From a virus (lineage: Duplodnaviria; Heunggongvirae; Uroviricota; Caudoviricetes), in the IMG/VR virus record IMGVR_UViG_3300031647_000750, positions 128,025-192,024 of that record: a DNA stretch of 64,000 bases. One strand, given 5' to 3'. Of the stretch, positions 15,298 through 22,134 are shown piece after piece (within the stretch, counting starts at the first letter, position 1; the number at the start of each line of letters is the position of its first letter). A program made the position numbers and the translations under genes. The notes under the pieces were generated by a model. The model saw only the letters and a list, made by a program, of their open reading frames with translations. It was not told the origin of the DNA and did not search any database.

Positions 15298-15421
15298 AGG
15301 GTTTGGGTTGTAGCGCAGTCTGGGAGAAGCGTCTATCCTCGGTGATGTAGCATTAGATTAATTACCTAATACCCTGCATTACATAGATAGAAGGTCGTGG
15401 GTTCGAATCCCTCCAACTCCG
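15298..15421 (+). ncRNA. tRNA-like element with D-arm-like TAGCGCAGTCTGGGAG and T-loop GGTTCGAATCC but ~50 nt of extra internal sequence; the structure is unresolved
   Basis: tRNA-like motifs present; could not be folded into a canonical cloverleaf by hand. Confidence 0.25.
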
Positions 15422-15472
15422 TTAGAGTTTTGTCTAATATAAATATAGTTTAACTAAGCGTAGGGAAAAGTA

Positions 15473-15676
15473 ATGATTGTAGCACTAGCACTAATTGGGG
15501 CATTGTTCACAGTAGACCATGCAGAGTTTTTAAATCAGGTAGAGAAGAATAAAGCAGATGGTATGTCGTGGCATTACATTGGGTCAACTGCACCAAATGC
15601 AAATGATCCGTACATTGCTGCAATTAACAAAGAAACGGGTGAAGAAACTGTTTACTTTAAGATGTTACAGGACTAA
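15473..15676 (+). CDS. Small membrane protein embedded in the tRNA cluster
   Basis: ORF with RBS gggaaaag; hydrophobic N-terminus. Confidence 0.45.
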   Translation: MIVALALIGALFTVDHAEFLNQVEKNKADGMSWHYIGSTAPNANDPYIAAINKETGEETVYFKMLQD

Positions 15677-15707
15677 ATGTAACTAAGTATTTAATTGAAA
15701 ATAAGTG

Positions 15708-15736
15708 TTGACAAGAACGAAATAGTCTGTTACACT
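15708..15736 (+). promoter_or_regulatory. Promoter ATAAGTGTTGACAAG-17-TACACT (tandem copy 1)
   Basis: Extended -35 motif AAGTGTTGACA is repeated at 15822, 18138, 14868, 24966 and 38475. Confidence 0.55.
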
Positions 15737-15821
15737 TATTACATAGGTTTGAGAAGCGTAACTAAGCATTTTGAACCGAAAAAGATAAATAGAATCATAA
15801 GAAATAAAGTTAAAATAAGTG

Positions 15822-15850
15822 TTGACAAGATAGAAATAGTCTGTTATACT
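15822..15850 (+). promoter_or_regulatory. Promoter ATAAGTGTTGACAAG-17-TATACT (tandem copy 2)
   Basis: Near-identical 45-bp repeat of the 15701-15745 segment. Confidence 0.55.
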
Positions 15851-16039
15851 TATAACATAAACAGTTAAAGATAACTGTAATAAACAAGAGAACGAAACGA
15901 TGTTAAACACATTCTGTAATTTACATAGTAAACTAGATAGTCAACGCTGGTATCAGCCGGAGATTATGAATGTGCCCGCGAGTTTCTTAGACGAGGATGA
16001 TGGATTATATTAAGCCATTAAATCCAATAAATTTCTAAG

Positions 16040-16074
16040 AAACCCGCCAAGCGAAAGCAAAGCGGGTTTTTTTA
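16040..16074 (+). terminator. Rho-independent terminator
   Basis: AAACCCGC-loop-GCGGGTTT stem followed by TTTTT. Confidence 0.7.
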
Positions 16075-16238
16075 TGACAGTGTAAAAGTAGAAGCGGAAC
16101 GAGGTCGCTGAGATTACACTTTAAATAATATCTCTAAAATGGCGTGTTGTAGGATTGAAAGTTCTAGTTAGAATGAGTAAAATTATGACAGTATATTTTT
16201 ATACTAAAAAGCATTCATAGAGTGTTTTTCAGTATAAT

Positions 16239-16312
16239 GCTCGGTTAGCTCAAAGGTAGAGCCATCGCTCGATAAGCGATAGACGAAGGATCGTTACCTT
16301 CACTGAGTACCA
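16239..16312 (+). tRNA. tRNA, anticodon GAT (Ile) with atypical C33 and atypical T-loop ATCGTTA
   Basis: Hand-folded cloverleaf: acceptor GCTCGGT/ACTGAGT with G-U pairs, D-stem GCTC/GAGC, anticodon stem ATCGC/GCGAT, encoded CCA. A -10 TATAAT lies immediately upstream. Confidence 0.45.
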
Positions 16313-16359
16313 TTTTAAAATTGGAGATTCACTGCCATAAGTGTGAACTATAAAATTAC

Positions 16360-16436
16360 GGATTGTTAGCATAGTGGCTTAATGCAGCACCTTCATACGG
16401 TGAAGATCAATGGTTCAAATCCATTACAATCCACCA
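16360..16436 (+). tRNA. tRNA-Met (CAT)
   Basis: Acceptor GGATTGT/ACAATCC, D-stem GCAT/ATGC, anticodon loop TTCATAC, T-arm AATGG-TTCAAAT-CCATT, CCA encoded. Confidence 0.7.
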
Positions 16437-16444
16437 CAAGTTTT

Positions 16445-16520
16445 ACAGGGTATAGCTGAGTTTGGTTTAGCACGGGCCTTGGATGCCTGAGACGAGGGTT
16501 CAAGTCCTTCTTCCCTGACC
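16445..16520 (+). tRNA. tRNA-Pro (TGG)
   Basis: Anticodon stem CGGGC/GCCTG with loop CTTGGAT; T-arm GAGGG-TTCAAGT-CCTTC; acceptor with one mismatch; CCA encoded; D-arm irregular. Confidence 0.5.
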
Positions 16521-16574
16521 ATTAGAGATAGTGTATATCTCGTGTCTTTTATTAGATATAAAAATACAATTTAA

Positions 16575-19861: not shown

Positions 19862-19866
19862 CATTA

Positions 19867-19944
19867 GGGCCTATAGCTTAGTTGGTTTAAAGCAGACGAC
19901 TCATAATCGTAAGATCCTTGGTTCAAGTCCAAGTAGGCCCACCA
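19867..19944 (+). tRNA. tRNA with CAT anticodon (elongator Met or Ile2-lysidine type)
   Basis: Perfect acceptor GGGCCTA/TAGGCCC; D-stem GCTT/AAGC; anticodon loop CTCATAA; T-arm CTTGG-TTCAAGT-CCAAG; CCA. Confidence 0.8.
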
Positions 19945-20081
19945 CTATAATTTATTTTTGTATAAGATTTGTCTTATACATTTACAGAAATCGCTTCTGT
20001 TATCGTGACATACAACGACAACGATAGCGTTACACTCGTAACAAATACATGTTAATTATGCGAGTTGACGATAACAGAGGC

Positions 20082-20156
20082 GGCGCTATTCGCGAGTATC
20101 GTATAATGGTTATTACGGGAGGTTTCCAACCTTTTGATGTCAGTTCGATTCTGACT
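20082..20156 (+). tRNA. tRNA-Gly (TCC)
   Basis: Perfect acceptor GCGAGTA/TACTCGC; anticodon loop TTTCCAA; T-arm GTCAG-TTCGATT-CTGAC; CCA. Confidence 0.85.
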
Positions 20157-20178
20157 ACTCGCTCCAATATGTAAGAAG

Positions 20179-20264
20179 TAAAGAACATGCCTTGGTGGTG
20201 GAATTAGGTATACACATCAGATTTAAAATCTGACGACTTCGGTCATGCGGGTTCAAGTCCCGCT
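20179..20264 (+). tRNA. tRNA-Leu (TAA), class II
   Basis: Anticodon stem TCAGA/TCTGA with loop TTTAAAA; variable hairpin GAC-TTCG-GTC; T-arm GCGGG-TTCAAGT-CCCGC; CCA. Confidence 0.85.
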
Positions 20265-20296
20265 CAAGGCACCAAAATTAAAATAGAAGATGTAAT

Positions 20297-21028
20297 ATGA
20301 ATAGTTTGTTTGAATACACAGAAGCAGTAGAAGAGTGCAAAGGTTCGTTAGAAGGTGATGGTGATAATAAGTTATTTACCGAAGCAGAGCGTGTTCTATC
20401 TACTGAAATAAACAACGAAGAAAAGATATTAAAGCATCCGATATTACATGAAGCGTTTGATCGCATCGTAGAGCAACATGTACCAAATCAATCAACTGCA
20501 TTTTTATCATTATGCACTGCTACTCGTCCTTATAACAAGAGCAAGAAGTGGAAAGGATTCATCAACAAGTTTGGTGGTAAGGTAGATATGATAGTTGTAT
20601 CTAATGGTGGTATGATGCCACAACAGTTTTGGAAAAGTTGGCCCTATTTGAATTACGATGGGGGTGATCATTATGATGTTAAAATGTATCAAGATATTAT
20701 GCATGAACGATTATTGAAGTTTTTTAGGAAGCACAATTACAGTAATGTTATTGCAAACTTTAGACCTAATTTAATCAATCATCAACCAGCACATGATGCG
20801 CTTTCTATTCTGAAAGAAGAAGGTAGCATTGGTGATTATATTGTAATGCCTAATCAGGAGTTGTATGATAAGGCACAGTCATTAGGTTGGCGACCACCAC
20901 AAGGTCAAGGTGATATGTTCCCTGATTTAACCAATACGATACTGAGTGCATTAACTGCTCAAGTGGAAGAATTCGGGTATGATGAAGATTTATTTACTGT
21001 TCATGAAAAATTAAAGTACAATAAGTAG
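20297..21028 (+). CDS. Hypothetical protein
   Basis: ORF; start immediately downstream of the tRNA cluster. Confidence 0.45.
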   Translation: MNSLFEYTEAVEECKGSLEGDGDNKLFTEAERVLSTEINNEEKILKHPILHEAFDRIVEQHVPNQSTAFLSLCTATRPYNKSKKWKGFINKFGGKVDMIVVSNGGMMPQQFWKSWPYLNYDGGDHYDVKMYQDIMHERLLKFFRKHNYSNVIANFRPNLINHQPAHDALSILKEEGSIGDYIVMPNQELYDKAQSLGWRPPQGQGDMFPDLTNTILSALTAQVEEFGYDEDLFTVHEKLKYNK

Positions 21029-21073
21029 GTTATTTTTATAGTATAAATAATACTATAGACAGGGAGAAAGATA

Positions 21074-21748
21074 TTGTTCAAGGGAATATATAATCTTTTT
21101 AAGCAGAAAGAAGAGCCTATAGCAGAGATGATTGAAATCCCTGTTAAAAACCCAGAATTACCTCATATTGTGTTTATACACGGTGCTGGATGTAGTCATC
21201 GCAGTTGGAATTATATATTAGCAAAACTTAACCCTACCCGTTACACTATGTTAGAGTATTCGGTAGATGATAAGTTTTATACTAATCTAAATAAACTGTC
21301 GACTATTGTTGGTCAAATACATGATAGGGATTTATTTATAATATCTCATTCTATGGGTGGTATATATGCATTGCATTTATGTCAGAGTTTTAGTCATAGA
21401 GTAATTGGTTCAATATCTATCGCGACTCCGTTTGCGGGATCGAGAACAGCAGATTTTGTAAAATATGTATATCCATCGTATATATTGTTTCGAGATGTTG
21501 GAGTAAGAAGTGCGCCTATTATGAGGTGTCATGATATTACAATCAATGTACCTTGGACACAGATAGTTACGACAGATGGGCATGTACCGTGGCATAAGGG
21601 TGAGAACGATGGTGTTGTGACGGTAGAAAGTCAGCGTCATCGTAAAGATATAGATTATGTAGAAATACATGTAACCCACCATGAAGCGTTGGTGAGTGAT
21701 GAAGCATTAGATATTATAAAAGAAAAATTAGATATCAAAAACGCTTGA
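21074..21748 (+). CDS. Alpha/beta-hydrolase fold protein (GxSxG: SHSMGG)
   Basis: HGAG..SW oxyanion-type motif plus nucleophile elbow ISHSMGGIYALHL. TTG start after RBS GGGAGAAAG; an alternative ATG exists at 21128. Confidence 0.5.
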   Translation: MFKGIYNLFKQKEEPIAEMIEIPVKNPELPHIVFIHGAGCSHRSWNYILAKLNPTRYTMLEYSVDDKFYTNLNKLSTIVGQIHDRDLFIISHSMGGIYALHLCQSFSHRVIGSISIATPFAGSRTADFVKYVYPSYILFRDVGVRSAPIMRCHDITINVPWTQIVTTDGHVPWHKGENDGVVTVESQRHRKDIDYVEIHVTHHEALVSDEALDIIKEKLDIKNA

Positions 21749-21822
21749 CAGAACACGTTACATAGTGTATAATAATTTATTAGATAAATAAAGTAGTAAG
21801 TATGAAGTGGTTACATAATCGT

Positions 21823-21898
21823 GGGGATATAGCTCAGTTGGGAGAGCGACTGCCTTGCACGCAGTAGGTCGTAGGTTCGATCCCTATTATCTCCACCA
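21823..21898 (+). tRNA. tRNA-Ala (TGC), copy 1
   Basis: GGGGATATAGCTCAGTTGGGAGAGC...CTTGCAC...GGTTCGATCC...TATCTCCACCA canonical. Confidence 0.9.
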
Positions 21899-21947
21899 TT
21901 ATGTGACTATTAGTCTAATAAATAAAGTAGCAAGTATGAAGTACAAT

Positions 21948-22023
21948 GGGGATATAGCTCAGTTGGGAGAGCGACTGCCTTGCACGCAGTAGGTCGTAGG
22001 TTCGATCCCTATTATCTCCACCA
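21948..22023 (+). tRNA. tRNA-Ala (TGC), copy 2, identical to copy 1 and part of a ~120-bp segmental duplication
   Basis: Identical sequence; the upstream flank AAATAAAGTAG(T/C)AAGTATGAAGT is also duplicated. Confidence 0.9.
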
Positions 22024-22058
22024 TTTTAAAATTAAAGAGATATCAAATTTCTTTAAAA

Positions 22059-22134
22059 GCCGACATAGCTCAGACGGTAGAGCAACTGACTTGTAATCAG
22101 TAGGTCCCGAGTTCGACTCTTGGTGTCGGCACCA
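22059..22134 (+). tRNA. tRNA-Thr (TGT), second copy with a different backbone
   Basis: Acceptor GCCGACA/TGTCGGC; D-stem GCTC/GAGC; anticodon loop CTTGTAA; T-arm CCGAG-TTCGACT-CTTGG; CCA. Confidence 0.8.

Follow-up and report, generated by a model that had tools for sequence, protein, structure and literature searches.

The window, the whole 64,000-nt stretch analysed, contains a dense tRNA island on the + strand at 15.3-22.1 kb. The cluster is genuine, with 23 tRNA genes within the genome of a large uncultured marine phage which is T4-related. ARAGORN at default settings gave 18 tRNAs and Rfam RF00005 at or above gathering score added two (Cys-GCA, 38.9 bits; Tyr-GUA, 36.1 bits), so that ARAGORN and Infernal/Rfam together called 20, and three extra tRNAs (Arg-UCG at 16576, Ser-GCU at 16883 and an initiator-like CAU at 19789) were recovered via diverged relatives. 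All 23 carry a genomic CCA and the expected discriminator base. They serve 16 amino acids and the initiator, with Lys, Phe, Gln and Val absent, and most anticodons have U34, which agreed with the bias of the phage to A-ending codons when the anticodon set was checked against codon usage. Transcription of the island is predicted to start from several consensus sigma-70-type promoters. The original prediction of about 25-28 tRNA genes was correct as to the cluster but not the number, as the 23 tRNAs are accompanied by approximately seven tRNA-like or remnant elements, and its hand-folded list had overlooked Ile-GAU (16239) and Cys. The features of the island are as follows.

15249..15443, +, conserved tRNA-like RNA, "15298 family" (covariance model R1)
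16239..16312, +, tRNA-Ile(GAU), T-loop ATCGTTA (A54/U58), CCA (ARAGORN; Rfam 53.3 bits)
16360..16436, +, tRNA-Met(CAU), elongator-like, canonical (ARAGORN; Rfam 63.2 bits)
16446..16521, +, tRNA-Pro(UGG), canonical (ARAGORN; Rfam 56.4 bits)
16576..16648, +, tRNA-Arg(UCG), short D arm CCAG-UGGAA-CUGG, no 8/9 linker (fold; relatives' alleles)
16649..16795, +, structured stretch, two T-arm-like hairpins and terminal helix, ends ACCG (fold z = -1.6)
16796..16872, +, tRNA-His(GUG), T-loop ATCATAC (A54/U58), G-1 present, A73 (ARAGORN; Rfam 56.6 bits)
16883..16968, +, tRNA-Ser(GCU)-like, class II, T-loop ATCGTAA (A54/U58), G73-CCA (ARAGORN -ps80 only)
16975..17051, +, tRNA-Cys(GCA), U73, T-loop TGCAAAT (G55) (Rfam 38.9 bits, 16975-17048; ARAGORN -ps80)
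17059..17083, +, tRNA-Glu remnant, first 25 nt (100% identity to L006 tRNA-Glu positions 1-25)
17100..17176, +, tRNA-Glu(UUC), T-loop ATCGTCG (A54/U58) (ARAGORN; Rfam 45.6 bits)
17177..17292, +, structured element, 9-bp terminal helix, four hairpins (fold z = -3.3)
17293..17367, +, tRNA-Trp(CCA) (ARAGORN; Rfam 40.8 bits)
17368..17479, +, acceptor-like helix and T-arm-like hairpin AGAGG-GTGTTGA-CCTCT, ends ACCC (fold z = -0.4)
17480..17578, +, tRNA-like cloverleaf without CCA (fold z = -3.0; ARAGORN relaxed threshold only, 17479-17579)
17590..17675, +, tRNA-Tyr(GUA), class II (Rfam 36.1 bits, match 17590-17672)
17683..17760, +, tRNA-Leu(UAG), class I shape, A73 (ARAGORN; Rfam 52.9 bits)
17796..18119, +, IscA-type Fe-S assembly protein (Pfam PF01521, E = 2e-19)
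18506..18824, +, structured RNA family, two tandem ~160-nt copies, 18506-18663 and 18664-18824 (covariance model R2)
18843..18918, +, tRNA-Asn(GUU), canonical (ARAGORN; Rfam)
19019..19092, +, tRNA-Thr(UGU) (ARAGORN; Rfam)
19236..19311, +, tRNA-Asp(GUC), T-loop ATCGAAA (A54/A58) (ARAGORN; Rfam 54.2 bits)
19359..19449, +, tRNA-Ser(UGA) (ARAGORN; Rfam)
19527..19601, +, tRNA-Arg(UCU) (ARAGORN; Rfam)
19712..19781, +, shortened tRNA-like gene (Rfam 26.4 bits, 19712-19778, sub-threshold)
19789..19861, +, initiator-like tRNA(CAU), short D arm (Rfam 20.6 bits, 19789-19858, sub-threshold)
19867..19944, +, tRNA(CAU), lysidine-type by anticodon arm, which we take to be Ile2 from its likeness to E. coli tRNA-Ile2 (ARAGORN; Rfam 69 bits)
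19945..20091, +, strongly structured spacer (fold z = -4.4)
20092..20166, +, tRNA-Gly(UCC) (ARAGORN; siblings compared)
20189..20274, +, tRNA-Leu(UAA) (ARAGORN; Rfam)
21823-21898 and 21948-22023, +, two tRNA-Ala(UGC) (ARAGORN; Rfam)
22059-22134, +, tRNA-Thr(UGU) (ARAGORN; Rfam)

The Ala/Ala/Thr block (21823..22134) lies between a promoter (21745-21773) and a terminator (22142-22161).

Approximately one third of the tRNAs deviate from the canonical elbow. ATC had been noticed in place of TTC at the start of four T-loops (ATCGTTA, ATCATAC, ATCGTCG, ATCGAAA); all four were right and in register, and the tRNA at 16883-16968 provided a fifth (ATCGTAA). Mis-registered hand folding, an explanation raised along with that observation, is extremely improbable and was ruled out by tool agreement and by stem and CCA spacing: ARAGORN and Infernal placed the loops identically, each 7-nt loop lies inside a 5-bp T stem with at most a G-U wobble, and exactly 7 + 1 nt and then CCA are found 3' of each T arm.

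A54 pairs with U58 in four of the five ATC loops. In 148 distinct tRNAs of the phage group, positions 54/58 were U/A in 134, A/U in 10, A/A in 3, G/G in 1 and U/U in none; counts were also made for the first set of 105 distinct tRNAs (U/A 95, A/U 8, A/A 2, U/U 0; Fisher p = 1.6e-10) and a lineage-only set of 93 (U/A 81, A/U 9, A/A 3). The tRNAs with A54/U58 were those for Ile, His, Glu, Ser-GCU, Asn and Leu-UAA, and the genomes that carry them came from assemblies of many separate metagenome samples. The A54 T-loops, which covary with position 58, are not products of degeneration. No isosteric relation is known between A54:U58 and the reverse-Hoogsteen pair U54:A58. A review of T-loops does not mention A54:U58, the special case which it names being A54:A58 of eukaryotic initiators (PMC7912444). 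Within the 148-tRNA set, D-loop GG was absent from all six tRNAs with G55 T-loops and replaced by GA in both tRNAs with U56. The elbow departures are compensated in structure: A54 goes with U58 (or A58), G55 with GG loss and U56 with A19, and D arms of reduced length and a tRNA-Leu of class I shape are also among them. Variants of these kinds reappear in other isoacceptors of sibling genomes.

Comparison with related loci (L numbers) revealed several alleles of these genes. The tRNA-His T-loop is TTCGATC in L027, ATCGAAG in L029 and ATCATAC in the window, a series of U54/A58, then A54/A58, then A54/U58. L027 has ATCGTTC in tRNA-Ile(GAU), and both L027 and L029 have ATCGTAC (A54/U58) in tRNA-Asn(GUU). 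The tRNA-Ser(GCU)-like gene has a D arm that deviates in its 6-bp stem and 3-nt loop, and its acceptor, GGAAGAT, is also that of the canonical Ser-GCU in L027 and L029; L051 and L053 carry another A54/U58 Ser-GCU allele. Relatives have a canonical tRNA-Glu allele unrelated to the window gene at 17100..17176, tRNA-Asp(GUC) is identical among seven relatives, and the tRNA-Tyr(GUA) acceptor has compensated changes versus L006. The D loop of tRNA-Cys(GCA) lacks GG; this gene and Ser-GCU have weak helices, which could be decay. Variant alleles keep anticodon identity, acceptor stems and discriminator bases, and among alleles divergence was 23.7% in the T-loop and 25-29% in stems, with anticodon loops the most conserved part (6.6%). 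As judged from sequence comparison, the odd T-loops are compensated variants, neither hand-folding errors nor simple decay. We infer that they belong to functioning tRNAs in which selection keeps the L-shape as the T-loop sequence shifts.

The elements earlier described as aberrant are a mixed group: two are real tRNAs with short D arms and the others are tRNA-like or remnants. The tRNA-Arg(UCG) at 16576, which gave no call from ARAGORN default or Rfam, has a perfect acceptor and T arm and four alleles among relatives, with anticodon UCG in the window versus ACG there, both Arg; the anticodon and T stems contain compensated pairs and the D arm is invariant. The initiator-like tRNA has GGG/CCC at the anticodon stem closure and a mismatched 1-72, and its four alleles in relatives, with T-loops which include TTCGATT, TGCAAGT and GGCAGGT, show compensated D-stem and anticodon-stem changes. 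A degenerate-tRNA reading of these two (19790 and 16576) was ruled out, as they occur in all relatives with stems compensated and anticodon identity kept. The TAG-anticodon tRNA with a short, class I-like variable arm was confirmed at 17683-17760, its variable loop being 5 nt; Leu-UAG alleles in relatives are 82 nt and class II with a long variable arm.

Degenerate tRNAs, intron-containing tRNAs and tRNA-derived RNAs had been suggested for the aberrant elements, and each reading fits a different subset. The evidence supports 15298 as a tRNA-derived RNA. It is one of a five-member family (window, L027, L011, L053, L063; model R1) whose helices covary and which lacks a usable anticodon loop. Leader and trailer pair over 23 bp (15249-15271 with 15421-15443) around a tRNA-like core (15303-15422) with a D arm, T arm GTGGG-TTCGAAT-CCCTC and G3:U70 acceptor, in which a ~48-nt hairpin with apical loop AUUAAUUAC replaces the anticodon loop. 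No CCA is encoded, and 15304-15421 had a sub-threshold Rfam tRNA score (24.7 bits). Over the five members pairing was 87% in the outer helix, which had 7 compensated pairs, and 96% in both the T stem and the counterpart of the anticodon stem, each of which had 3. ARAGORN -i reported 15303-15422 as "Pro-CGG + 41-nt intron", and intron mode also called 17479-17579 (28-nt) and a "Lys-UUU" copy at L011 2865-2972 (33-nt; Rfam 33.2 bits), the latter two having, once the insert is removed, a loop of 7 nt with U33 and purine 37. However, chance alone would be expected to yield such calls: there are 8 possible split points, any of which can give U33 and purine 37, and by our own estimate this occurs in ~60% of cases. 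After excision the 15298 family members would have no common anticodon, and the 23-bp helix locks their 3' end. CCA is not encoded, the inserts are 28-48 nt hairpins without a match to group I intron models (Infernal/Rfam), and a scan of 40 window ORFs detected neither an RNA ligase nor a splicing endonuclease. It is thus very unlikely that these are tRNAs with a new short anticodon-loop intron removed by a phage or host enzyme, and the intron suggestion was set aside.

The segment at 17059-17083 is a degenerate tRNA, the canonical tRNA-Glu from which it derives being intact in relatives. The elements at 19712, 16649 and 17368 are probably degenerate likewise. The 19712 gene has kept an intact acceptor, D and T arms and ACCA, but the space for anticodon arm and variable loop is 15 nt instead of the ~22 required; a 100% identical copy occurs in L053 in a different context. 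The 16649..16795 stretch has no homology to the tRNA-Lys at the same position in L027 and no homologue among the other loci searched, and 17368..17479 is 100% identical in L006 and missing from L027 and L029. The element at 17177..17292 ends AAATTATTTTTAA, lacks both T-loop motif and CCA, and is missing from L006, L027 and L029. The 17480 cloverleaf has a perfect 7-bp acceptor, D hairpin, T arm GTAGG-TGCAAAT-CCTAC and a ~45-nt extended anticodon arm, and model R3 found it in the window and L006 only. At E<=10 Rfam gave no tRNA score for 16650-16790, 17182 or 17480. Outside the window lineage all five elements are confined to L006 or L053, and diverged homologues were not found in the loci searched.

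With the 15298 family, the 18506-18824 RNA gives the island two previously undescribed structured RNAs. The latter follows a consensus promoter (18466-18494) and has no match in Rfam; in its family (10 distinct sequences) 84.9% of cells were paired and 30 of 44 pairs had changed on both sides. The spacer at 19945..20091, with 87-100% conservation among relatives and 92-100% in most of them, lies directly 5' of a homing-endonuclease insertion hot spot. In T4 the region has a matching set of components (tRNAs, segB, rnaC and rnaD), and rnaC folds with a T arm and terminal helix. T4 species 1 and 2 RNAs are excised by tRNA-processing enzymes, and the structured RNAs between tRNAs would be expected to be cut out in this way here.

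The window itself has no endonuclease gene; these were found in siblings. In near-identical siblings a variant Gly gene and a SegB orthologue replace tRNA-Gly(UCC), in genomes otherwise 99.8-99.99% identical, and L027 has an HNH endonuclease instead. The SegB ORF of L005 shares 43% identity with T4 SegB (E = 6e-58), and the L027, L058 and L063 islands contain HNH and GIY-YIG genes. The T stem-loop is encoded by GGTTCRANTCC, the DNA motif read by SegB (PMC2330249). We therefore prefer escape from homing endonuclease attack as the probable driver of T-loop change, and regard the whole account, compensated and selected T-loop variants driven by such escape, as reasonably likely. Homing endonucleases (SegB orthologue, GIY-YIG, HNH) would attack the island; as the T-loop DNA motif is what SegB recognises, alleles with an altered TTC (GGATCGT.., GGTGCAA.., GGTTTGA..) would evade cutting, and the fold would then be restored through second-site changes, either at position 58 or in the D loop. 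Recurrent cutting and repair may have produced the allele mosaic, the shortened tRNA-Glu and the lineage-specific tRNA-like debris.

Neutral turnover, in which genes are quickly gained and lost and the deviant tRNAs and tRNA-like elements are decay stages tolerated via host tRNAs, seems unlikely. The tRNA-Glu remnant, the loss of the anticodon loop at 19712, the ACCG and ACCC ends at 16649 and 17368, the narrow distribution of the five elements and the low scores of Ser-GCU and Cys are all consistent with it, but decay does not predict U58 with A54 in 10 of 13 cases and never with U54, matched D-loop changes for G55 and U56, compensated stems with conserved anticodon identity, or identical deviant alleles across contigs from many different metagenome samples; the intact CCA and discriminator bases of all 23 tRNAs also argue against it. 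We give a similarly low probability to RNA-level immune evasion, whereby elbow and variable-arm changes would spoil the substrate of a host nuclease or toxin with translation kept and endonucleases incidental. Phage tRNAs have been reported to gain mutations resistant to immune anticodon nucleases and can rescue from PARIS (PMC13056530, PMC11464382), and loss of the Leu-UAG long variable arm with the elbow changes would affect shape-reading enzymes. The nucleases in those reports, however, cut the anticodon arm, the part which diverges least here, neither host nor defence system was identified, and the changes cluster on the TTC letters used by the DNA-reading SegB.

If endonuclease escape is correct, the SegB orthologue should cut GGATCGTNNCC and GGTGCAAATCC alleles less efficiently than GGTTCGANTCC alleles. 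Inspection of T arms indicated that approximately 8 of the 23 tRNAs keep the full T4 SegB core motif, and TTCGATT is retained in both endonuclease-linked and endonuclease-free tRNA-Gly alleles. The allele mosaic is seen as a 100% identical block adjoining blocks of ~75% identity.

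The window had a G+C content of approximately 36%, all of its long open reading frames were on the + strand, and it encoded a gp44-type clamp loader, two ClpP proteins, ClpX, IF3, several radical-SAM/SPASM proteins, IscA and an IscS-like protein. No close relative was found among GenBank phages: megablast of the region returned matches to single tRNAs only, and tblastn of a neighbouring 726-aa protein against GenBank phages gave no match. Near-identical contigs were present in metagenomes of marine origin, JGI and TARA samples among them. Relatives were gathered through contigs with an identical IscA, homologues of a DUF5591 protein, diverged phage-lineage IscA variants and the T4 tRNA region. 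The most useful of these (metagenome contigs L006, L025, L027, L029 and L050–L065) carried islands homologous to that of the window, at 70%–100% identity in a block-wise mosaic.

The tRNA cluster, originally predicted to hold about 25–28 genes, proved to be real and was found by ARAGORN, Rfam and comparison with relatives to contain 23 tRNAs, all with an encoded CCA, after which there was usually an A/T-rich spacer (ATTTTAA type). The full set comprised Ile, Met, Pro, two Arg, His, two Ser, Cys, Glu, Trp, Tyr, two Leu, Asn, two Thr, Asp, an initiator-like tRNA, an Ile2-like tRNA, Gly and two Ala. Lys, Phe, Gln and Val were missing from the window, and Lys, Gln and Val were present in L027. When the set was compared with codon usage as had been proposed, the anticodons were mostly U-first and the phage preferred A-ending codons (GCA 63%, CCA 50%, ACA 46%, GTA 48%, TTA 41%).

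ARAGORN with default settings called 18 tRNAs between 16239 and 22134. The Rfam tRNA model RF00005 gave 20 matches at or above its gathering score of 29 bits (36.1–72.5 bits), including these 18 and adding Cys-GCA (38.9 bits) and Tyr-GUA (36.1 bits). Three of the 23 tRNAs fell below the gathering score: Arg-UCG at 16576 and Ser-GCU at 16883, neither of which was reported by RF00005 at E ≤ 10, and the initiator-like tRNA at 19789. A run with default filters also lost His, Glu and Cys. Since three of 23 tRNAs were missed by the finders, tRNA counts in phage metagenomes are likely to be underestimates. The aberrant elements of the original prediction obtained a tRNA score only in part, with sub-threshold matches at 19712 (26.4 bits), 15304 (24.7 bits) and 19789 (20.6 bits) and none at the gathering score. 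Our own relaxed scan for acceptor stems and T arms produced hundreds of chance matches and was used for reading registers only. Rfam matches to YrlA, tmRNA and a plastid UTR within the region were rejected as weak side-matches to tRNA genes.

Transcription signals in the tRNA island
15708, 15822, 18138, 18280, 18466 and 21745: sigma-70-type consensus promoters
16155: weaker promoter
~16040–16075: terminator hairpin, read from the sequence (the scan flagged a partial hairpin only)
22142–22161: terminator hairpin

Immediately 5' of the first tRNA block, within 15700–16075, a 37-aa ORF is driven by two strong promoters of nearly identical sequence (AATAAGTGTTGACAAG...) and ends at the sequence-read terminator hairpin. 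The tRNA with a UAG anticodon and a class I-like arm was also borne out: tRNA-Leu at 17683–17760 had a variable loop of 5 nt and no class II long arm, with A73 and a Leu-type D arm retained, and its alleles in L006, L025, L027 and L029 had the long variable arm. The discriminator base C73 is usual in bacterial tRNA-His; tRNA-His at 16795–16872 had G-1 but A73, while the L027 and L029 alleles had C73, and this may have a bearing on the type of host HisRS.

Few features of tRNA are as conserved as the U54:A58 pair, U55 and the G19:C56 pair. Five tRNAs of the window departed from U54:A58, all with A54 and with U55 and C56 retained; four of them had U58 and the fifth A58. The four ATC T-loops that had been predicted (ATCGTTA, ATCATAC, ATCGTCG and ATCGAAA) were in the correct register, and further variants were found in the sibling islands.

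Variant T-loops in the window and in sibling islands
Window, tRNA-Ile: ATCGTTA, 54/58 = A/U
Window, tRNA-His: ATCATAC, 54/58 = A/U
Window, tRNA-Glu: ATCGTCG, 54/58 = A/U
Window, tRNA-Ser-GCU: ATCGTAA, 54/58 = A/U
Window, tRNA-Asp (GUC): ATCGAAA, 54/58 = A/A
Sibling, tRNA-Asn: ATCGTAC (L027, L029 and others)
Sibling, tRNA-Ser-GCU: ATCGTTA (L051, L053)
Sibling, tRNA-Leu-UAA: ATCGTAG (L063–L065)
Sibling, second tRNA-Ile: AGCGTTA
Sibling, tRNA-His: ATCGAAG, A54/A58 (L029)

Among 148 distinct tRNA sequences the 54/58 combination was U/A in 134, A/U in 10, A/A in three and G/G in one, and U/U was never seen. Fisher's test on a first set of 105 sequences gave p = 1.6e-10, a value which overstates independence because the sequences are related. 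The variation spanned at least six isoacceptor families, and the tRNA-His alleles formed a series from U54/A58 (L027) through A54/A58 (L029) to A54/U58 (window). Changes at the neighbouring elbow positions were accompanied by changes in the D loop: all six T-loops with G55 lacked the D-loop GG, and both T-loops with U56 (TTTGAAT) had a D-loop GA in place of GG, as is predicted if A19:U56 replaces G19:C56. No A54 was observed in distant relatives (L007, L010, L011 and others), where T-loops were canonical TTC apart from a few cases (one G55 loop in L011). From these comparisons of alleles we conclude that the T-loop variants are compensated and probably selected, and that they represent neither hand-folding errors nor simple decay.

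A recent review describes U54 as universally conserved, with A54:A58 of eukaryotic initiator tRNAs as the special case (PMC7912444). The A54/A58 combination of Asp-GUC in the window and of His in L029 resembles this case, but here it is carried by elongator tRNAs of a bacterial virus, and most A54 residues are combined with U58, a combination absent from PMC7912444. A full-text literature search found no paper on A54/U58 T-loops.

RNase P, the CCA-adding enzyme, TrmA, TruB, EF-Tu and the ribosome all recognise these elbow features. Natural compensated exceptions in at least seven isoacceptors offer material for testing which elbow geometries are tolerated by the bacterial machinery, and the same exceptions could show whether an inverted 54:58 pair can form.

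The three tRNAs below the gathering score were recovered by comparison with their alleles. Arg-UCG (16576–16648) had a perfect acceptor stem and T arm, with a short, invariant D arm (CCAG-UGGAA-CUGG) which retained G18 G19 A20 and had no 8/9 linker. Its four alleles had the anticodon UCG in the window and ACG in relatives, both arginine, and showed compensated changes in the anticodon stem and T stem. Bacterial initiator tRNAs are marked by a CAU anticodon, three G-C pairs closing the anticodon stem and a 1-72 mismatch. The tRNA at 19789–19861 carries this feature set, with an invariant anticodon loop CUCAUAA closed by three G-C pairs (GGG/CCC) and a U1-U72 mismatch. Its four alleles showed compensated D-stem and anticodon-stem changes, and their T-loops differed completely (TTCGATT, TGCAAGT, GGCAGGT). 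Both 16576 and 19789 retain a four-arm cloverleaf through compensatory changes, with a 7-nt anticodon loop containing U33 and purine 37 and with G/A73-CCA. Ser-GCU (16883–16968) is a class II tRNA which shared its acceptor with the canonical L027/L029 allele; its D arm was odd and one T-stem pair weak, and its assignment is less secure than that of the other 22. Arg-UCG, the initiator-like tRNA, the variant Gly and Cys resemble mitochondrial-type tRNAs with reduced D arms in that their D stems and loops are short and their D/T-loop contacts weakened, but here all four arms are present, CCA is encoded and the setting is a bacterial virus.

In the L050 allele of the initiator-like tRNA (7418–7489) the T-loop GGCAGGT has G54/G58, a purine–purine alternative at 54:58. 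Besides an initiator-like tRNA with GGG/CCC closing its anticodon stem, the phage has a gene for IF3 (30969–31475), the initiation factor that checks this stem in initiator tRNAs.

Phage tRNA islands that contain homing endonucleases and small RNAs are already known; within this type of locus, the compensated rewiring of the elbow and the two RNA families described below are new variants. The island is like those of T5-like, KVP40-like and jumbo phages in its approximately 20–30 tRNAs, interspersed small ORFs and homing endonucleases, and in a near-complete anticodon set biased to phage codon usage; unlike those islands, for which our full-text search found no such report, it has compensated A54:U58, G55 and U56:A19 elbows. 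Like the T4 tRNA region (8 tRNAs, segB, rnaC/rnaD), it is also a cluster of tRNAs in a genome of T4 type, with the gp44-type clamp loader encoded in the window. In T4, segB lies within the tRNA cluster beside rnaC and rnaD; a SegB-type GIY-YIG gene likewise lies inside the cluster here, but in sibling genomes and not in the window. Contigs L001–L003 and L005, which were 99.8%–99.99% identical to the window, had tRNA-Gly (20092–20166) replaced by a divergent Gly-UCC and a gene for a 214-aa GIY-YIG protein, which in L005 matched T4 SegB from end to end at 43% identity (E = 6e-58). This orthologue was absent from the window and L004. The same tRNA-Gly site held an HNH endonuclease in L027 and another GIY-YIG gene in L058, and L063 had HNH-like genes elsewhere in its own island. 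There are three times as many tRNAs as in T4, and many of them lack the canonical GGTTCRANTCC carried by the T4 tRNAs discussed in PMC2330249.

That motif is the essential core of the 27-bp site through which T4 SegB cuts tRNA genes, and it encodes the T stem-loop (PMC2330249). All T-loop variants found (GGATCGT.., GGTGCAA.., GGTTTGA..) change TTC within the core, and we therefore favour, as the likely driver, an escape of these alleles from DNA cleavage directed at the T-loop. SegB-type cleavage at T-loop DNA, by analogy with the cutting known for T4 SegB only, would select alleles with a rewritten TTC, and second-site compensation in the RNA would then follow. We put forward only tentatively, and with more doubt than belief, the full proposal that this lineage repeatedly rewrote the elbow (A54:U58, G55, A19:U56) because T-loop DNA is the recognition site of the island's SegB-type endonucleases, the tRNAs staying functional via second-site compensation. 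Against escape as the driver, the window itself has no endonuclease gene, about 8 of its 23 tRNAs retain the full SegB core motif, and T-loop divergence among alleles, whose excess would have been a sign of diversifying selection, was not above stem divergence. A reasonable alternative is that the elbow changes evade immune nucleases directed at tRNAs, but anticodon loops, which are cut by the nucleases in the papers cited for them, were the most conserved part here. If escape from a T-loop-reading endonuclease were the driver, selfish DNA would have shaped an RNA whose sequence had been assumed to be set by the function of the RNA itself, and the island would be a natural selection experiment on the T-loops tolerated by bacterial translation.

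Like T4, the island has non-tRNA RNAs among its tRNAs, T4 rnaC consisting of a T arm and terminal helix around an aberrant interior. A tRNA-like RNA at 15249–15443 belongs to a family, here called the 15298 family, with five members.

Members of the 15298 family (covariance model R1, n = 5)
Window, 15303–15422
L027, 1927–2045
L053, 4999–5116
L063, 2612–2732
L011, 2864–2973

Their closest canonical relatives were tRNA-Ala genes, with G3:U70 kept in the window and L011. The D and T arms were tRNA-like, no CCA was encoded, and a hairpin of 33–49 nt took the place of the anticodon loop. The anticodon-stem analogue and T stem were 96% paired, with three compensated pairs each. A leader approximately 30 nt upstream pairs with a trailer in a 23-bp helix (15249–15271 with 15421–15443), which contained seven compensated pairs and a U-G intermediate in L063 and looks like a processing stem. 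No Rfam model matched the family at or above threshold (RF00005 gave the window member a sub-threshold 24.7 bits). The apical loop read (G)GAUUAAUUACC in four members and GGAGUCAUGACC in L011, with palindromes in both; it was self-complementary in all members (window 15340–15385; L011 2890–2930) through AUUAAU in four and GUCAUGAC in L011.

The second family is a structured RNA of approximately 160 nt present in the window as two tandem copies behind a perfect promoter.

The 18506 family in the window
18466: promoter, TTGACA-17-TATACT
18506–18663: first copy
18664–18824: second copy

Its covariance model (R2) found one copy upstream of tRNA-Asn in those lineage relatives whose fetched sequence reaches that position. 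Across ten distinct sequences 84.9% of cells were paired and 30 of the 44 pairs were changed on both sides, with a covariation score of 0.61 versus 0.25 for shuffles and ≤0.165 for slid controls. Invariant single-stranded motifs were CGACAAUAG and GACGAUAG, and one loop contained an 8-nt palindrome, GAUUAAUC. AUUAAU was common to a loop of this family and the apical loop of the 15298 family, and the self-complementary loops of both suggest that these RNAs may engage in loop–loop (kissing) pairing. The 18506 family had no Rfam match and was absent from 22 IMG/VR pattern matches. IMG/VR scans by its pattern, by the conserved trailer of the 15298 family or by the DUF5591 protein alone gave no true match, and neither R2 nor R3 (the model of the 17480 element) matched the T4 region with rnaC/rnaD. 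Few conserved non-coding RNAs are known from phage tRNA regions, and the two new families add to them. These families are like GOLLD RNA (RF02032), a large structured RNA of phage tRNA regions which sometimes encloses a tRNA, but are much smaller. GOLLD itself was found in the distant syntenic relative L011 (647–1135, 165.7 bits, with tRNA-Lys inside), and the window had no RF02032 match.

Other elements were individual. The sequence 17059–17083 is identical to the opening 25 nt of tRNA-Glu in its canonical L006 form and sits immediately 5' of the unrelated Glu gene with A54/U58. The element 19712–19781 kept the acceptor, D arm, T arm and ACCA, with 15 nt where approximately 22 are needed, and had an identical copy in a different context in L053. 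The 3' ends were ACCG for 16649–16795 and ACCC for 17368–17479; derivation of 16649–16795 as a decayed copy of the L027 tRNA-Lys at the same position was ruled out. The elements 17177–17292 and 17480–17578 had fold z-scores of -3.3 and -3.0 and were both absent from L027, L029 and L050–L065. The block of Trp, 17368 and 17480 was 100% identical in L006, with the adjoining Tyr and Leu genes at approximately 75%–85%. Model R3 found no diverged homologue of 17480, and since model R1 did not match it, 17480 is not in the 15298 family. Both lie within the cluster, as T4 species 1/2 RNAs do in theirs, and like these they enclose a non-tRNA interior in a terminal helix and T arm of tRNA type. The elements at 19712, 16649, 17368, 17177 and 17480 may be either stable small RNAs like T4 species 1/2 or recombination debris. 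Degenerate tRNAs, intron-containing tRNAs and tRNA-derived RNAs had all been suggested at the outset, and each reading fitted a different subset of elements. Introns fitted least well and were rejected as the main explanation, the inserts being 28–48 nt, where a group I intron would have at least about 200 nt, with no group I model match in 14.5–23 kb at E ≤ 10.

Several spacers were unusually structured. That at 19945–20091 (z = -4.4) was 87%–100% conserved in relatives (mostly 92%–100%), above most tRNA genes, and ends exactly at the homing-endonuclease insertion hot spot. Spacers 18919–19018, 19093–19235 and 19602–19711 had z-scores of -4.05, -4.5 and -1.3, and the first and last of these were 100% identical in L025 and/or L053.

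Among the protein genes, IscA (17796–18119; L027 3690–4016) sits within the tRNA island, and a monothiol glutaredoxin adjoins it in L027 and L050–L054; the window as a whole had five radical-SAM/SPASM genes and one IscS-like gene. The nearest cellular IscA homologues were from Gammaproteobacteria (approximately 65% identity), a possible clue to the host. The 107-aa genes beside the L007 and L010 tRNA clusters were not IscA homologues. The gene for the DUF5591 protein (20297–21028) is also embedded in the island, and in L007 and L010 it was found near QueC-like and Fer4_12 (QueE-like) genes, a neighbourhood which hints at a 7-deazaguanine modification pathway.
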